DNA from: Omnitrophica WOR_2 bacterium RIFCSPHIGHO2_02_FULL_45_21
GTDB lineage: Bacteria > Omnitrophota > Gorgyraeia > Gygaellales > UBA12090
Assembly: GCA_001805575.1 (NCBI GenBank)
Contig: MHGN01000054.1
Span: forward strand, 1 to 55,761
DNA length: 55,761 nucleotides
Reading direction: 5' to 3'
In this document: one piece after another, positions 2,062-37,712 of the stretch
How positions within the stretch are numbered: the stretch's first letter is position 1
Layout: every line of letters begins with the position of its first letter
Made by a program: the position numbers and the translations under genes
Notes under the pieces: generated by a model
What the model was told of the DNA's origin: nothing
Databases searched by the model: none
What the model saw: only the letters and a program-made list of their open reading frames with translations

Positions 2062-3599
2062 TGAATGTACCGTTTCTTCTTATGGCTGCGGCTAGCGGAA
2101 GCCGCACCATTGCCCTCTGGCTTATGCCGGAAATCAAAGATATGGCCGAAGATCCTTGGGAGCGAGCGGATGAAGAATGCCATATCCTCAAAGCTTGTTA
2201 TAGATATTAAGCGGTTAAATATAAACTCAGGATTTAAGGCGATGCCGTAAAGCGACTGCACAAGTTTCATTATCGTATCCACGGCGATAGGGCTTGTCAT
2301 TACCGGCTCCTTCATATCAAAAGCGCGCCAATCCTGGGTTTTTAGCCAACCGTTCACTTTACATTCCTCAAATAAAGGCGAACCCGGATAGGGGATTACC
2401 ACTGTTGCCTGCATTGTGTAGGCATAACCTTTTCTGAGCAGCCACTTTCCCAATTTTAAGGTATTCAGCGCTTCTTGATAAGTCTCCCAGGGATAGCCGA
2501 ACATAATGGTAATATGAGGATAGAGCCCGCATCTGCGCGCTAATTTGCAGGAATCAATGATATTCTCCACCTTTACATCTTTATTTATCCTATTCAGGGT
2601 ATTTTGATTTGCCGATTCTATACCGAATAATAACAGGCGAAAGCCCGCTTTTTTCATTAGTTTATAATCCTCTTCAAGACAAGCTCCAAAACGCATATTA
2701 CAGTCAAGGTTAATTTTACGGTTATAGCCGCGTTCAAGCATACCCTGACAAAAATCCCTTAACCACTCGCCGGCCTGGAATGTGCCCGAGTCATCCATAA
2801 TTTCCCTCACGCTATAATCTTCAATCAGATGACCTATCTCATCAAGCACATTCTCTACCGAGCGGCTCCTGAAGCTGGTATACATTGTCGGCCAAGAGCA
2901 GAAGGTACATTTTGCCCACCAGCAGTCGCGGCTGGACATAATATAAGTGCCGGGGGTATTCTTATAATTACCGTTTTCATAAGCATAAAGCTCCCATTTA
3001 GTCAAATTGCGGTCAATAAACGGCAGGGTATTTAAATTATGGTTAAGCTGGAATTTACCGGTATTTTTGGTTTGGCCGTTTTCGCGGTAGTAGATGCCCG
3101 GCTCTAATTTAGCGGATAGCGGATAAAGCGGAATGGCGGATAGTTTTGATTCTTTAATTGTATTGCATAAATTAAGCAAAAGAAAGTCATAATCGCCGCC
3201 GGTGAGCACAAAATCAACCTGGCTGTTTTGAAAAGATTCTTCCGGCAGGGCAGTAACATGGTCACCAAACAATATACACCTGACACCTGACACCTGACAC
3301 CTGAGACTATCAATTATCTTCCAGTGTTCTTTGATCACCGGGGTCTTGCTTTCAAAGACAATTAGATCCGGCTTTTCATCTGCGACAAAATTATAAAATC
3401 TTTCCAGGCTCCAGCCTTCGGCAATACAATCATTCCAGAGGACATCATAACCTGCTTGTTTTAAAAGAGTTGCGGCTGTCGCAGGAACTACCGGATAGAT
3501 GTATGTCGGCTTATTAAAATACTGGAACTGACGATTTTGGGATAAAAGAGGGACACCCTTGGAAGTATCTAACGGTGGATATGAAATTACAACCTTCAT
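2046..3599 (-). CDS. B12-binding-domain radical SAM protein (class B rSAM)
   Basis: The N-terminal Rossmann-like B12-domain pattern (PDLIVFESKTP...ILFGDHVTALPE) is followed by the cluster motif SRDCWWAKCTFCSW and a TIM-barrel-like region (LLLFGIESANQ). Confidence 0.8.
   Translation of the reverse strand: MKVVISYPPLDTSKGVPLLSQNRQFQYFNKPTYIYPVVPATAATLLKQAGYDVLWNDCIAEGWSLERFYNFVADEKPDLIVFESKTPVIKEHWKIIDSLRCQVSGVRCILFGDHVTALPEESFQNSQVDFVLTGGDYDFLLLNLCNTIKESKLSAIPLYPLSAKLEPGIYYRENGQTKNTGKFQLNHNLNTLPFIDRNLTKWELYAYENGNYKNTPGTYIMSSRDCWWAKCTFCSWPTMYTSFRSRSVENVLDEIGHLIEDYSVREIMDDSGTFQAGEWLRDFCQGMLERGYNRKINLDCNMRFGACLEEDYKLMKKAGFRLLLFGIESANQNTLNRINKDVKVENIIDSCKLARRCGLYPHITIMFGYPWETYQEALNTLKLGKWLLRKGYAYTMQATVVIPYPGSPLFEECKVNGWLKTQDWRAFDMKEPVMTSPIAVDTIMKLVQSLYGIALNPEFIFNRLISITSFEDMAFFIRSLPRIFGHIFDFRHKPEGNGAASASRSHKKKRYIQCSGN
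3276..3303 (-). repeat. tandem heptamer array (CAGGTGT)x4 on the sense strand, inside the rSAM CDS
   Basis: The plus strand reads acacctg four times without interruption. It is translated as RCQVSGVRC. Confidence 0.95.
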
Positions 3600-25372: not shown

Positions 25373-25411
25373 CGCTGATAGAAAGCGCTGATAGAAAGCG
25401 CTGATAGAAAA
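25373..25411. repeat. three tandem 13-bp repeats (cgctgatagaaag) abutting the -35 element
   Basis: The copies at 25373-25385 and 25386-25398 are identical. The copy at 25399-25411 has one mismatch. Confidence 0.95.
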
Positions 25412-26229: not shown

Positions 26230-27161
26230 AAGACGGCGGCCTGGATAGCCCGTATCATAGAGGCGGGGTCAGCCTGATTTTTTCCGGCAATATCAAAGGC
26301 GGTCCCGTGCCCGGGGGAGGTGCGCACAAAAGGCAGGCCCAGGGTAATATTCACTACTTCCTGAAATCCGCTTAATTTAAGAGGAATAAGCCCCTGGTCA
26401 TGATACATACAGACTATACAATCATAATTTCCGGCTTTTGCTTTCTGAAAGATAGTATCTGCAGGATATGGCCCTTTAACCTTAATCCCTAATCTCTCTG
26501 CCATTGCCATTGCCGGAATTATCAATTTTCTTTCTTCGCTGCCCATAACACCGCTATCCGAAGCATGCGGATTCAAGCCGCAGATAGAAAGTTTTGGCTT
26601 CTTAATGCCAAAGAGTGATTTTAGCCCTAAGGCGGTTGTAGAAATAACCTTGGATATTTTTTCTGCGCTTAGCCCTTTGGCAACGTCTTTTAAGGGTATA
26701 TGTCTAGTGACCAAAACCACTCTTAATTTCTTATTAAACAGCATCATCACTGCATCTCTGACCTGGAATGTCCGGGCGATATATTCGGTCTGTCCGCTAA
26801 AATGATACCCTAATAGGCTTACCGCCTTCTTATTTAGCGGAGCAGTAACCAAACAATCTATCTTATGGGATTTAATCAATTCCAGCCCTTTCTGCAGATA
26901 TTCCATCGCCGCCTTACCATATTCTGGCCTAACTTTTCCAAATCTAAATCCTTTTTGAGGCACATTCCGTAGGTCAATAACCACAAAATCATGATACTTT
27001 GACACTTTGACACTTTGACACTTCTCAAACACCCGCCTATCCCCAATTACGGTAAAATCTGCTGACTTAGAAAGTCCGGGGGTTCCCAGCGCCTTAAGAA
27101 TAACTTCGGCCCCAATCCCCGAAGGATCCCCCATAGTTATTGCACATCTAACCTTAGTCAT
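26202..27161 (-). CDS. pdxA: 4-hydroxythreonine-4-phosphate dehydrogenase
   Basis: ITMGDPSGIG, GLNPHA, MYHDQGLIPLK and TSPGHGTAFDIAG motifs. Confidence 0.9.
   Translation of the reverse strand: MTKVRCAITMGDPSGIGAEVILKALGTPGLSKSADFTVIGDRRVFEKCQSVKVSKYHDFVVIDLRNVPQKGFRFGKVRPEYGKAAMEYLQKGLELIKSHKIDCLVTAPLNKKAVSLLGYHFSGQTEYIARTFQVRDAVMMLFNKKLRVVLVTRHIPLKDVAKGLSAEKISKVISTTALGLKSLFGIKKPKLSICGLNPHASDSGVMGSEERKLIIPAMAMAERLGIKVKGPYPADTIFQKAKAGNYDCIVCMYHDQGLIPLKLSGFQEVVNITLGLPFVRTSPGHGTAFDIAGKNQADPASMIRAIQAAVLCTKNLKRA
26996..27023 (-). repeat. tandem octamer array (GTCAAAGT) x about 3.5 inside the pdxA CDS
   Basis: The plus strand reads actttgac three times and then actt. It is translated as KCQSVKVSKY. 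Confidence 0.95.
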
Positions 27162-34577: not shown

Positions 34578-34924
34578 TCAGCCCCGCCGCTTTCGGAGTG
34601 AATTTGACGATAGAAACAAGACCTATTACCTGTATGACAGGCCGCGCCAATTTGCCGGACTTTAATCAAAAGTGTATCGGCATCACAGTCATAATAAATT
34701 TCCTTGATAAATTGGAAGTGGCCTGAGCTTTCACCCTTTACCCAGTATTGCTTACGTGAGCGCGACCAGAAGCAGGCCTTCTTAAGCTTGAGGGTGCGCT
34801 TTAATGACTGCTTATTCATATAGGCAAGCATTAAAACCTCGCCGGTCTTATAATCCTGGATTATCGCCGGGATAAGCCCGGCAGCATCATATTGTAAGTT
34901 CAAGATTTCGCGTTTTCTTAACAT
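34574..34924 (-). CDS. hisI: phosphoribosyl-AMP cyclohydrolase
   Basis: [26 protein letters not shown] and CDADTLL motifs. There is no HisE domain. Confidence 0.9.
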
Positions 34925-35700
34925 CTTATGGCAACCCCTCTTTTCTTCAAGTAACCCTTAAGCTCTTTAACGGTTAATTCCTGATAATGAAAAAGCGAGG
35001 CCGCTAATGCCGCATCCGCACGGCCTTGAGTCAATACCGTATAAAAATCCTCTTTCCTGCCTGCGCCGCCGGAAGCAATCAGCGGAATATTTACGGAACT
35101 GGTTACTGCCTTAGTCAGCTCTAAATCATACCCGCATTTTGTGCCATCATAATCCATGCTGGTCAAAAGAATTTCACCCGCGCCTAATTTCTCTACCTGC
35201 CGCGCCCATTTAACCGCGTCTAAACCCGTCGGCGTCCTGCCGCCGTTTATATAAACCTCCCAAAAAGTTTTACCTGCGGCCTGCGGCCTGCGGCCTGCGG
35301 CCTTTTTAGCATCAATCGCCGCTACAATACACTGACTCCCAAACTTATCTGAGGCCTTTTTAATCAAGGCGGGATTCTTTAGCGCAGCGGTATTGATCGA
35401 GACCTTATCCGCACCGGCATTAAGCAGGGCCCTGATGTCCGATAAGTCCCTTACCCCTCCGCCGACGGTAAGAGGCATAAAGACATTCTGGGCAGTGCGC
35501 CTGACGACGTCTAAAATAATTTTTCTATTCTCGGCGCTTGCGGTTATATCTAAAAATACAAGCTCATCCGCCTCCTCGTCTTCGTATCTTTTAGAAACCT
35601 CAACCGGATCCCCTGCGTCCTTAAGCTTTAAAAACTTCACCCCTTTTACCACCCGGCCATCCTTAACATCAAGACAGGGAATTATTCTTTTGCTAAGCAT
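34918..35700 (-). CDS. hisF: imidazole glycerol phosphate synthase cyclase subunit
   Basis: [25 protein letters not shown] and [15 protein letters not shown] motifs. The start is moved to the ATG directly after the hisA stop. Confidence 0.95.
35273..35302 (-). repeat. tandem heptamer array (CCGCAGG)x4 inside the hisF CDS
   Basis: The plus strand reads cctgcgg four times and then cc. It is translated as [10 protein letters not shown]. Confidence 0.95.
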
Positions 35701-35701
35701 T

Positions 35702-36421
35702 CTACTTTGCCATTGCAATAGCTTCGGGCAGGGAAAACATTTTTTCATAGAGCGCTTTGCCGATAATCACCCCTTTTAAGTTAGGGCTGCTGAGCGCGAT
35801 AAGTCCTTTAATATCTTCTAACGAACAAACGCCTCCGGAGACAATAACATCAATCGAGGTTGCCTGAAGCATTCTTTTAAGCGCCGGAAAATTTAAACCC
35901 TTGAGGCTGCCGTCACGGGTTATATCGGTATAAATGATAGTTTTTAAACACATTTTTTCTAGCCTCGCTATTAAAGGGGTAAACTCAATTTTAACTGACC
36001 TCTTCCAACCTTCTATGCCTATACCACTCGCGGAGACATCTATTGCCAGGGCGATTTTGCGGCCGAATTCTTTTACTGCTTTGGCTAAGAAGCCGATATC
36101 TTCTATGGCTTTCGTGCCCAGCACAACCCTGCTGGCGCCAAGAGCAATGAACTTTTTTATCATCGCCAAATCCCTGATGCCGCCTGAAACCTCAAGCGGA
36201 ATCTTGCTCACGGCAATGATTTTTTTGATCAGCTTCAGGTTTTTCGCTTTACCGGTCATAGCGGCGTCTAAATCAACTAAGTGCATAAACTTTGCTCCCT
36301 GGCTTTGCCAGTTGAGGGCAACTGATACAGGGTCGGCAGAATAAACCCTTTTATTAAACCTGCCCCTGGTGTATCTGACCACCTCGCCATCTTTTAAATC
36401 AATCGCGGGAATGATAAGCAT
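35702..36421 (-). CDS. hisA: ProFAR isomerase
   Basis: [15 protein letters not shown], the (beta/alpha)8 pattern, and its position in the his operon. Confidence 0.9.
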
Positions 36422-36422
36422 T

Positions 36423-37046
36423 TTAGAGCTTTAGAAAATTTTCCAGAAGCCTTAAGCCCAGACGCTGGCTCTTCTCAGGATGAAACTGACAGGCAAATAA
36501 ATTGTCTCTACGGATGCCGGAGGTAAACTCAATACCGTAATCAGTTGTGAGGGCAATCAAACTCTTATCCTCGGGAACTACATAATAAGAATGGCAAAAA
36601 TAAAAATACGAATTATCGGGAATGGCCTTGAGCATAAAACATTCCTGCCTCCTGCCTCCTGGGTCCTGCGTCTTAAGTTTTACCTGATTCCAGCCGATAT
36701 GCGGAACCTTCAGCTGATGGGAAAACCGCTTAACCCTGCCTTTAAAAATCCCTAAACCCCCGACCTTGCCGCCTTCTTCGCTTTCAGTAAAAAGAAGCTG
36801 CAGGCCAAGGCAAATACCCAAGAATGGTTTGATGAATATATTTTTTTTAATTACCTCAATCAATCTCAATTTCCTTAACTCACGCATCGCCTCTTGCATT
36901 GCGCCGACACCGGGCAAGACGAGCTTATTGGCCTTAGAAATCAATGCCGGGCTTGAGGTAACTTTGACGTTCTTTGCCCCGGCTGCCTCTAAGGCCTTTG
37001 CCACGCTGCGTAAATTCCCCATCCCGTAATCAATAATCGCAATCAC
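36423..37046 (-). CDS. hisH: imidazole glycerol phosphate synthase glutaminase subunit
   Basis: GTG start followed by IAIIDYGMGNL, LPGVGA, GICLGLQLL (catalytic Cys) and FHPEKS. Confidence 0.9.
   Translation of the reverse strand: MIAIIDYGMGNLRSVAKALEAAGAKNVKVTSSPALISKANKLVLPGVGAMQEAMRELRKLRLIEVIKKNIFIKPFLGICLGLQLLFTESEEGGKVGGLGIFKGRVKRFSHQLKVPHIGWNQVKLKTQDPGGRRQECFMLKAIPDNSYFYFCHSYYVVPEDKSLIALTTDYGIEFTSGIRRDNLFACQFHPEKSQRLGLRLLENFLKL
36643..36670 (-). repeat. imperfect tandem heptamer array (GGCAGGA-like)x4 inside the hisH CDS
   Basis: The plus strand reads tcctgcc tcctgcc tcctggg tcctgcg. It is translated as QDPGGRRQE. Confidence 0.9.
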
Positions 37047-37115: not shown

Positions 37116-37712
37116 CTATAGAATGCCCTTGGTTGATAGAATACCCTTGATACGCGGATCGATGGCCACCGCATCTTTCAAGGCCCTGCCGAAGGCCTTA
37201 AAAACTGCCTCAATGATATGGTGGGAATCCTCACCATAGACTATTTCCGCATGCAGGGTTATTCCGGCATTACTGGCCACGGCCTGCAAAAACTGCTTCA
37301 AATAATTCAGGCTGTATTCTTTACCTTCAGCCATGAACTCTGAACTATGAACTCTGAACTTTAAACAAGGCCTGTTGCATATATCTAAACTAACTTCGGC
37401 TAACGCCTCGTCCATCGGCAGAGAGGAAAAACCAAACCGCCTGATGCCCGATTTATCTGTTAATGCTTTTTTTATTGCCTGCCCCAGGCAAATCCCGATA
37501 TCCTCATTGGTATGATGCATGTCAACTTCAACATCGCCGGAAGCTTTGAGTTTCAAATCAAATAAGCCATGCCTGGCAAACAAAGTCAGCATGTGATTTA
37601 AGAAATTTATCGGCGTTTTAATATCGGACTTACCGCTACCGTCTAAATTTATCCCTACGGTAATATCGGTCTCAGTAGTTTTGCGTTTAATATTTGCTTT
37701 TCTTGCTTTCAT
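37116..37712 (-). CDS. hisB: imidazoleglycerol-phosphate dehydratase
   Basis: RKTTETDI, MHHTNEDIGICLG and DSHHIIEAVFKAFGRAL motifs. Confidence 0.95.
   Translation of the reverse strand: MKARKANIKRKTTETDITVGINLDGSGKSDIKTPINFLNHMLTLFARHGLFDLKLKASGDVEVDMHHTNEDIGICLGQAIKKALTDKSGIRRFGFSSLPMDEALAEVSLDICNRPCLKFRVHSSEFMAEGKEYSLNYLKQFLQAVASNAGITLHAEIVYGEDSHHIIEAVFKAFGRALKDAVAIDPRIKGILSTKGIL
37334..37361 (-). repeat. imperfect tandem heptamer array (AGTTCAN)x4 inside the hisB CDS
   Basis: The plus strand reads tgaactc tgaacta tgaactc tgaactt. It is translated as KFRVHSSEFM. Confidence 0.9.

Follow-up and report, generated by a model that had tools for sequence, protein, structure and literature searches.

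Tandem repeats of seven nucleotides are the most abundant class of long simple sequence repeat (SSR) in many bacteria, and polymerase slippage with a footprint of ~7 nt has been proposed as the cause of this period (Mrazek, Guo and Shah 2007, known here through PMC4692102 and PMC4679880). Here we describe one such repeat, a perfect (CCGCAGG)x4 array translated within hisF, the gene for the cyclase subunit of imidazole glycerol phosphate synthase, in a 55,761-nt stretch of DNA (contig MHGN01000054.1, henceforth the window) from Omnitrophica WOR_2 bacterium RIFCSPHIGHO2_02_FULL_45_21 (assembly GCA_001805575.1; 1.31 Mb, 75 contigs, 44.6% GC, ~90% complete). With a probability of roughly 0.6, we regard this array as a near-neutral, translated heptanucleotide SSR that occupies the single hairpin at which HisF is permissive, has been homogenised despite its age, and forms part of a lineage-wide, frame-filtered process with a period of 7.

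As far as the citing accounts describe them, prokaryotic heptanucleotide long SSRs share with the arrays of this genome their tandem 7-nt units, the over-representation of period 7 and the presence of many different units per genome; the arrays described here differ in lying mostly inside conserved housekeeping open reading frames (ORFs), in being quantised at four units and in occurring in a 1.3-Mb Omnitrophota genome of 44.6% GC. The GGGAATC/GGGGAYT repeats of Xanthomonas and Nostoc have one G-rich consensus, form G-quadruplexes (G4s), are intergenic and occur less often than expected in coding DNA (Rehm et al. 2015, PMC4692102). Like the arrays of this genome, the GGGAATC repeats favour four units (PMC4692102); in contrast, the arrays here use many units, lack G3 tracts, and are intragenic and translated. 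Direct repeats of TAACTGA occur in marine Beggiatoaceae, cyanobacteria and Bacteroidetes, where they are mostly intergenic and upstream of start codons (MacGregor 2015, PMC4679880), and Calothrix PCC 7601 is another reported carrier of tandem heptanucleotides (according to PMC4692102). As here, both sets form dispersed families, built on specific heptamers repeated 2-6 times, whose origin is unexplained, but they are mostly intergenic, with single or few units, and TAACTGA cannot be translated in its forward orientation. We take the Calothrix repeats to be those called STRR.

Rickettsia palindromic elements (RPEs), the classic example of selfish DNA inserted in-frame, are ~150 bp long, palindromic, and fall into ten conserved families (PMC10969869). 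They too bring repeat DNA in-frame into unrelated metabolic and housekeeping genes, at structurally permissive sites where it is translated (PMC10969869), whereas the hisF array is 31 nt long, non-palindromic and tandem. Heptanucleotide repeats also occur at hmw1A of H. influenzae, a phase-variable contingency locus (PMC8262952). Such loci resemble the hisF array in being tandem heptamers in which a change of unit number would affect expression or reading frame; however, they have many units, vary between isolates and control surface or virulence genes, whereas the hisF array has four units, is fixed across assemblies and lies in a biosynthetic housekeeping gene. It can be described as an intragenic, frame-quantised heptamer SSR. 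Translated heptamer arrays in housekeeping genes appear to be little described, the well-described cases being intergenic, and in a literature search of limited coverage we found no paper linking Omnitrophota with such repeats.

The hisF array and its host gene

On the forward strand Tandem Repeats Finder (TRF) reports the array as CCTGCGG x4.4, with 100% matches, no indels and a score of 62 (Table 1). The coding-strand context reads AAAAAG, GCCGCAG x4, GT, AAA, and the codons of the insert are GCC GCA GGC CGC AGG CCG CAG GCC GCA GGT. A first-pass annotation, made by a model from the letters of the window, had placed (CCGCAGG)x4 inside hisF at 35273..35302, directly after the conserved AIDAK strand. 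Both the repeat and its placement hold, with the ten codons lying one base off the claimed span and the insert following directly on A-I-D130-A-K-K. It had also called this the most GC-rich 30 nt of the gene, and the best 30-nt segment in the array indeed reaches 87% GC, compared with 73% for the best segment elsewhere in hisF and 48% for the whole gene. Long SSRs are recognised by at least three head-to-tail heptamer copies beyond chance, and the hisF array has 4.4 perfect copies; codon-block shuffles of the 1.31-Mb genome gave no period-7 run with at least 14 matched positions, and the hisF array has 24.

The gene that carries this repeat appears to be complete. Although its long ORF begins at 35748, homologues begin at MLSKRIIP, and the true start is likely the ATG at 35700 that opens this motif and abuts the hisA stop codon. 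Public gene calls differ in the start, giving proteins of 244 aa (internal start codon), 260 aa or 276 aa (upstream ATG); the 260-aa form agrees with the homologues and adjoins the hisA stop. The Pfam family His_biosynth (PF00977) covers residues 6-244 of 261 (8.4e-86), and HisF entries of the PDB match the window protein at 2.9e-104 to 1e-78. D11 and D130 (T. maritima numbering), the catalytic aspartates known from T. maritima HisF, are invariant in a 50-sequence HisF alignment with the query as its first row. The operon on the minus strand, hisB-hisH-hisA-hisF-hisI-trpE, is intact, and the Pfam families of its genes are found in two other assemblies (L035 and L036). Judged by its sequence, the enzyme looks intact and ordinary, with the repeat as a passenger.

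In the protein, the insert lengthens a loop. Alignments to HisF-LUCA (4evz) and to the HisF proteins of T. thermophilus (1ka9) and P. aerophilum (1h5y) have 9-residue gaps exactly at the insert, and 259 query residues align to 249 in the T. maritima HisF chains, which bears out the first-pass annotation in its statement that the T. maritima loop is about 8 aa shorter. Its wider proposal, that an insertion of periodic DNA has lengthened the loop after the AIDAK strand, is likewise supported by TRF, the PDB gaps and the codon reading. An AlphaFold2 model built on the 50-sequence alignment has a mean pLDDT (predicted local distance difference test score) of 87.5 and a pTM (predicted template modelling score) of 0.88, with an alternating strand/helix pattern in which a strand at 125-133 is followed by residues 134-146 without secondary structure and then by the next strand, 147-151, starting at W147. 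The pLDDT falls below 50 at 139-141, within the insert. Mapped on this model, the insert lies in the unstructured segment between the two strands and is predicted to be a disordered extension of the hairpin turn into solvent. Given the internal two-fold symmetry of HisF, the insert site is the hairpin that follows beta5 and corresponds to the loop-1 hairpin behind D11.

Among the 120 closest Omnitrophota homologues, this loop is the only internal position at which HisF varies in length, its variable part spanning 2-30 aa; the named homologues are all Omnitrophota ("Omnitrophica WOR_2" or "Candidatus Omnitrophota"). The homologues have 98 distinct loop strings, many with a 7-residue periodicity (RTTNHEPRTT, QRTENREQRT, VTGHKSQVTGYRSQV), and relatives carry other heptamer arrays in the loop (Table 1). 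The alignment outcome that the first-pass annotation would have taken as a refutation, a loop ancestral in the lineage and free of periodic DNA, was not obtained. In the hisF loops of L007 and L004/L006, pairs of heptamer arrays stand in inverted orientation inside one insert, which could form a long hairpin made of repeats.

The elementary step of expansion is visible in a pair of relatives. The loop of L039 reads TCG GACGACG GT (SDDGKW) and that of L040 reads GACGACG GACGACG GAATACG GACGACG (SDDGRRNTDDGKW), a difference of exactly +21 nt, or 3 units and 7 aa; L041 also has 4 units. The L039 and L040 genes are 92% identical in nucleotide sequence over their whole length and 94% without the loop. 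Whole-unit changes in copy number between related genomes are thus seen in L039 versus L040/L041, as well as in same-site arrays that differ in length or unit between G000 (the window's genome) and G001 (a genome of the same genus), whose arrays we compared at orthologous sites. By analogy with the L039/L040 step, removal of three units from the window's hisF would leave a seed loop AAA AAG GCC GCA GGT AAA ACT TTT, or KKAAGKTF, of 8 aa, to which ~7 aa (21 nt) would have been added. A length of 8 residues is within the range of insert-free HisF relatives.

Table 1. The hisF array, its gene, sibling arrays in the window, arrays in the hisF loops of relatives, and orthologous array sites in G000 and G001.
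Feature	Position	Strand	Sequence or description
Perfect heptanucleotide tandem array	35273..35303	-	(CCGCAGG)x4.43 on coding strand, phased GCCGCAG x4 + G; TRF and direct reading
Ten codons translated from hisF array	35272..35301	-	HisF aa 134-143
hisF, imidazole glycerol phosphate synthase cyclase subunit	34918..35700	-	260 aa + stop; Pfam, PDB matches, ORF list
Asp130 codon	35311..35313	-	GAT; encodes HisF's second catalytic aspartate, four residues ahead of insert; invariant in alignment
Sibling array in hisH	36645..36672	-	GACGCAG GACCCAG GAGGCAG GAGGCAG; NNNNCAG family, decayed
Sibling array, GYCNCAG-like	3280..3307	-	GTCTCAG GTGTCAG x3; in-frame in 553-aa ORF
Sibling array in hisB	37333..37360	-	TRF; ATGAACTCTGAACT x2 on + strand, AGTTCAN x4 on coding strand
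hisF loop, L014			(AAGTCAG)x4
hisF loops, L004/L006 (G005/G003)			(GTCAATG)n and (CTATCGA)x4
hisF loop, L007 (G006)			(AGTCCAC)x4 and reverse complement (ACTGTGG)x3
hisF loop, L002			(AACCAGT)x3
hisF loop, L003			(CACAGTC)x2.7
hisF loop, L022			GCAAATC-like
Orthologous site, G000 vs G001	C52:8138		(CAGTTCA)x4.6 vs (CCGTTTA)x4; same site and phase, two substitutions in all units
Orthologous site	C7:1686		(GTCTCAG)x4, perfect in G000; decayed in G001
Orthologous sites	C71:22373 and C18:40119		same-length arrays, different units in G000 vs G001
Orthologous sites	C56:7645 and C30:15688		short or empty in G001

Age, turnover and stability of the insert

A hisF tree computed without the loop has the form (L031,(L034,(window,G001))). 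The outgroup, L031-L033, comes from three further assemblies with hisF ~81% identical in nucleotide sequence, and carries TTCACAG followed by GCCGCAG x3 in the same phase and with the window's 3' flank, GGT AAA ACN TTT TGG. The window and L031 agree at 24 array positions in a gene that is ~19% diverged, for which our own arithmetic gives a chance of 0.81^24, or ~0.006, at 81% identity. The closer relative L034 (90%) has a decayed array, GTTAGGG CTCAGGG CTCAAGG CTCAGAA, at the same site and of the same 30-nt length, 2 nt out of phase, and the hisF loop of G001 holds a longer insert unrelated to the window array. Derivation of the L034 array from the window array by substitutions was considered and rejected: 10 of 30 positions match, and the best unit alignment, 5/7, needs a 2-nt phase shift, which points to replacement.

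Because the outgroup L031 has an in-phase array, the hisF insertion predates the lineage splits and has been replaced in two lineages. By these comparisons the insert is old rather than young, and that it is now perfect reflects recent homogenisation rather than a recent insertion. Homogenisation is called for because the four window units are identical to each other and 24 positions have been kept relative to L031. Direct evidence for it comes from the concerted change of arrays at orthologous sites in G000 and G001 (Table 1). The arrays are also an instance of concerted evolution within coding DNA, and offer a testable lead on what sets period 7 apart in the replication or repair of bacterial DNA.

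At two further sites a heptamer array of G000 has as its counterpart a repeat of another period in G001, namely a ~11-nt tandem repeat (GGTGAACCCCT) at C18:16677 (L118 in G001) and a ~9-10-nt tandem repeat (CTCAAAGAA-like) at C28:19567 (L103 in G001). Permissive sites thus attract non-heptamer repeats too.

With regard to the population, three contigs of independent ENA assemblies (L035-L037), 99.94-100% identical to the window over 4.5-4.7 kb, all have four units and no indels; at the assembly level, no variation in unit number was seen among the four same-population assemblies, window included. All five members of the 90% protein cluster of the window HisF are in-frame with the insert. A search of metagenome contigs for the two exact flanks of the array, 5-35 nt apart, gave no match, in a collection that may lack records close to the window's genome. 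L035 (ERZ4903185; L035:2001-2735) differs from the window by three single-nucleotide polymorphisms (SNPs) in 4.7 kb, one of them inside the 31-nt array (AGG->AGC, R->S), where ~0.02 would be expected. This single event hints at a raised local mutability of the repeat.

A genome-wide excess of period-7 arrays

The hisF array has many counterparts in its genome. At a threshold of 14 matched positions or more, G000 contains 37 perfect arrays of period 7, compared with 0-3 for the other periods from 4 to 15 (except for period 14, with 6), and shuffles of the genome contain none of period 7 at this threshold. When at least 11 matched positions are considered, 50 of the 57 period-7 arrays lie inside ORFs of at least 120 aa. 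TRF at a low threshold returned 181 period-7 arrays, versus 37-92 for periods 6-10, with 131 of the 181 in long ORFs. Among coding arrays with three or more units there is a peak at four (60/99), whereas the non-coding distribution is flatter (11/33 at four units). The coding peak fits a frame filter, because no in-frame expansion is smaller than one unit plus three (+21 nt). Of the other genomes, G003, of the same family, and G019, of another family, show the excess as well, yet it is weak or absent in G015 and G010, and so varies by lineage within the order.

This 1.3-Mb genome holds more than 100 heptamer arrays in housekeeping genes, translated in all three frames, frame-quantised, homogenised and exchanged at fixed hot-spot loops. 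Within the his operon, the hisH array lengthens the HisH loop after GWNQV by ~5-9 aa relative to its relatives. The arrays amount to a natural map of insertion tolerance in conserved enzymes, in which the HisF hairpin after Asp130 takes 2-30 variable residues among the homologues compared. In metagenome-assembled genomes of Omnitrophota they can lead gene callers astray and distort alignments and estimates of protein divergence.

Two candidate genomic correlates were tried and set aside, as both are the same in array-rich (G000, G003, G019) and array-poor (G015, G010) genomes. The MutS_V domain was absent from all five of these Omnitrophota genomes, four of which are >90% complete, and a Y1 transposase domain (IS200/IS605 or RAYT-type) was present in all five, as a single copy in G000 (C3:24956-25285, within an open frame of 406 aa). 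Slippage in general may be raised where MutS is lacking; this cannot explain period 7 or the differences between lineages.

Proposed slippage under a frame filter and its alternatives

The anatomy, frame and location of the hisF array, the lineage-wide excess with its four-unit mode, and the turnover and concerted change of arrays are best accounted for, in our estimation, by slippage under a frame filter. Realignment in a 7-nt register, slipped-strand or unequal, would both create the arrays and keep them homogeneous. As 7 is no multiple of 3, only three-unit steps (21 nt, 7 aa) would survive selection in coding DNA, leaving states of 1, 4 or 7 units. In hisF the insert would add a short disordered extension at the hairpin after Asp130 without breaking the enzyme, and the repeat would have no regulatory or switching role; both its neutrality and the retained activity of HisF are presumed.

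Several points weigh against this account. A jump from one unit to four is not one simple slippage event, and gradual drift with homogenisation does not explain why L034, the closest relative with another array, carries it out of phase. Nor are the units arbitrary: among 57 arrays there are 16 identical-unit pairs versus 2.1 expected (maximum 9 in 300 simulations), and 109 pairs within one mismatch versus 38 expected. Arrays are often mosaics of related units, such as C50:497, which reads GTCACAG GCCGCAG GCCGCAG GCCACAG and then GTAAAA as in hisF. Repeats of (GCCGCAG)n of at least 11 nt occur at 25 loci, the top of 20 same-composition classes with a median of 2. Finally, at least some inserts arrive as blocks, as a 53-nt element in the hisF loop of G001 illustrates (see below).

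The most serious alternative, though one we consider doubtful, is that (GCCGCAG)4 is a copy of a dispersed, sequence-specific family (GYCNCAG and relatives), written into permissive sites as a ~28-30-nt unit by a mobile or templated process rather than grown locally, whether by a mini selfish element, by ectopic conversion between arrays or by an enzyme stuttering on preferred heptamers. Besides the recurrence of units well above a composition-matched null, it draws on the phased NNNNCAG family, which has 48 loci with at least three units in G000 versus 2-9 in shuffles; of the 27 loci with at least four units, 24 have exactly four. Its sub-families include GYCNCAG (with hisF, C50:497, C67:16425 and C55:10339), WAACCAG, NATCCAG and TTCACAG. 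Near-copies of the hisF array over 30 nt are found at C50:491-520 (97%), in C55 and at C5:16837, the repeat itself being the only sequence in common. The family also occurs antisense (C18:30544, C55:10339), which argues for a component at the DNA level rather than a preference for the peptide. Further in favour of blocks, the distant L038 HisF (~63% nt, 69% aa identical) has CTCGCAG and GCCGCAG x3 in this loop too, between different flanking sequences, the L034 array is an out-of-phase replacement, and the orthologous site C30:15688 has different families in G000 and G001.

The G001 hisF loop adds the dispersed 53-nt element (L087:9460-9512; AGAAACCAG-CCCGCCCTGGCAAAGCGAAGCGGGCCAGGG-AAACCAGTAACCAG), in which AAACCAG heptamers flank a GC-rich core, CCCGCCCTGGCAAAGCGAAGCGGGCCAGGG. 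Copies are present at 100% and 98% in two other G001 genes (L103:13983-14035 and L090:5468-5520), at ~91% at three further loci (L126, L134 and L111) and once in G000 (C60:298-340, in a 467-aa ORF). The element lies in-frame in ORFs of 272-467 aa (272-444 in G001) and is read in two frames, as RNQPALAKRSGPGKP or RNQKPARPGKAKRA. Its dispersal indicates that block insertion does occur in this loop in this genus, and it is a closer analogue of the Rickettsia RPEs than is the tandem array of the window.

Several features of the window array itself speak against its having arrived as a block. Terminal inverted repeats, duplications of the target and a hairpin are all absent: we found no flanking inverted or direct repeats and no palindrome within 60 nt, and predicted DNA folds of both strands were no better than those of shuffles (z -0.6 and -1.0), on which basis a hairpin or palindromic nature was rejected. 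Across G000, arrays are not associated with palindromes (4/96 versus 4.8 expected), by a crude test in which the palindrome list has a mean stem GC of 0.05 and is probably AT-only or N runs. The L039/L040 step is an expansion of a purely local, non-family unit, the in-phase substitutions in all units at C52:8138 fit homogenisation in place, and Y1 transposases do not track the arrays. In addition, recurrence may reflect an intrinsic propensity to slip. We had considered whether GCCGCAG is specific to Omnitrophota, and it is not: exact (GCCGCAG)x4 is common in Streptomyces (up to ~34 units, with several arrays at some loci) and is also present in Vicinamibacterales, KSB1, Myxococcales, Planctomycetota, Spirochaetaceae and others (L161-L240), with every copy number from 4 to 14 and above represented (four at 19, five at 21, six at 10 and seven at 8, up to 34). 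Expansion in Streptomyces and other phyla implies that the unit is intrinsically expansion-prone, and the unit preference could stem from this propensity, from selection for stop-free, loop-compatible peptides, or from dispersal.

A broader conjecture, which we advance tentatively, is that a sequence-preferring process in some Omnitrophota writes, and repeatedly overwrites, short heptamer arrays in permissive loops of housekeeping proteins, typically with four units (~28-30 nt) from a limited repertoire (GYCNCAG, WAACCAG, NATCCAG). The agent could be an enzyme that stutters in steps of 7 nt, or else a minimal system of mobility or conversion, with a possible link to the 53-nt GC-rich elements. 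If true, the Rickettsia RPEs would have a miniature counterpart made of tandem repeats, with the hisF hairpin as one of its recurrent landing sites.

It is improbable that the extension, rich in Arg, Pro and Gly, has been selected to alter HisF catalysis, its coupling to HisH or some other interaction. The insert does lie on the catalytic face, four residues after the catalytic Asp130, and L031 retains its peptide, GRRPQAAG, which is met again in L038. However, this conservation is matched by periodicity at the DNA level, the loop is nearly unconstrained in sequence and length among relatives (98 strings, 2-30 aa), the closest relatives carry unrelated peptides, and the loop is disordered in the AlphaFold model.

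A contingency locus, in which gain or loss of one 7-nt unit would switch hisF off or on, is more improbable still, even though frameshifting SSRs classically consist of such a unit within an ORF and one of the three L035 SNPs, by falling in the array, hints at local mutability. The array has only four units, which are kept in four independent assemblies, all cluster members are in-frame, and the loop changes across relatives are in-frame only. Arrays of this kind also occur in many housekeeping genes (hisF, hisH, hisB, long ORFs) and not in surface, host-interaction or restriction-modification genes. We give equally little credence to a nucleic-acid structure or binding site, whereby four GG tracts would form a two-tetrad G4, or a protein would bind each heptamer, and so modulate how the his operon is transcribed or translated. 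In favouring four units the arrays resemble the G4-forming GGGAATC repeats of Xanthomonas (PMC4692102), but known G4 heptamer repeats have G tracts of at least 3, are intergenic and occur less often than expected in coding DNA (PMC4692102), whereas the hisF array is intragenic with G tracts of 2, folds no better than shuffles, and has siblings that are mostly not G-rich. An assembly or sequencing artefact, for which nothing speaks beyond the trouble that repeats generally cause when metagenomes are assembled, can be dismissed for practical purposes, since the array is shorter than a read, has four units in independent assemblies of other samples, and has a homologous array in the three assemblies of L031-L033.

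Tandem repeats of other periods are also found in the window, including a perfect 13-bp x2.9 repeat at 25373-25410 (CGCTGATAGAAAG) and an 8-bp x4 repeat at 26992-27023 (TGACACTT).

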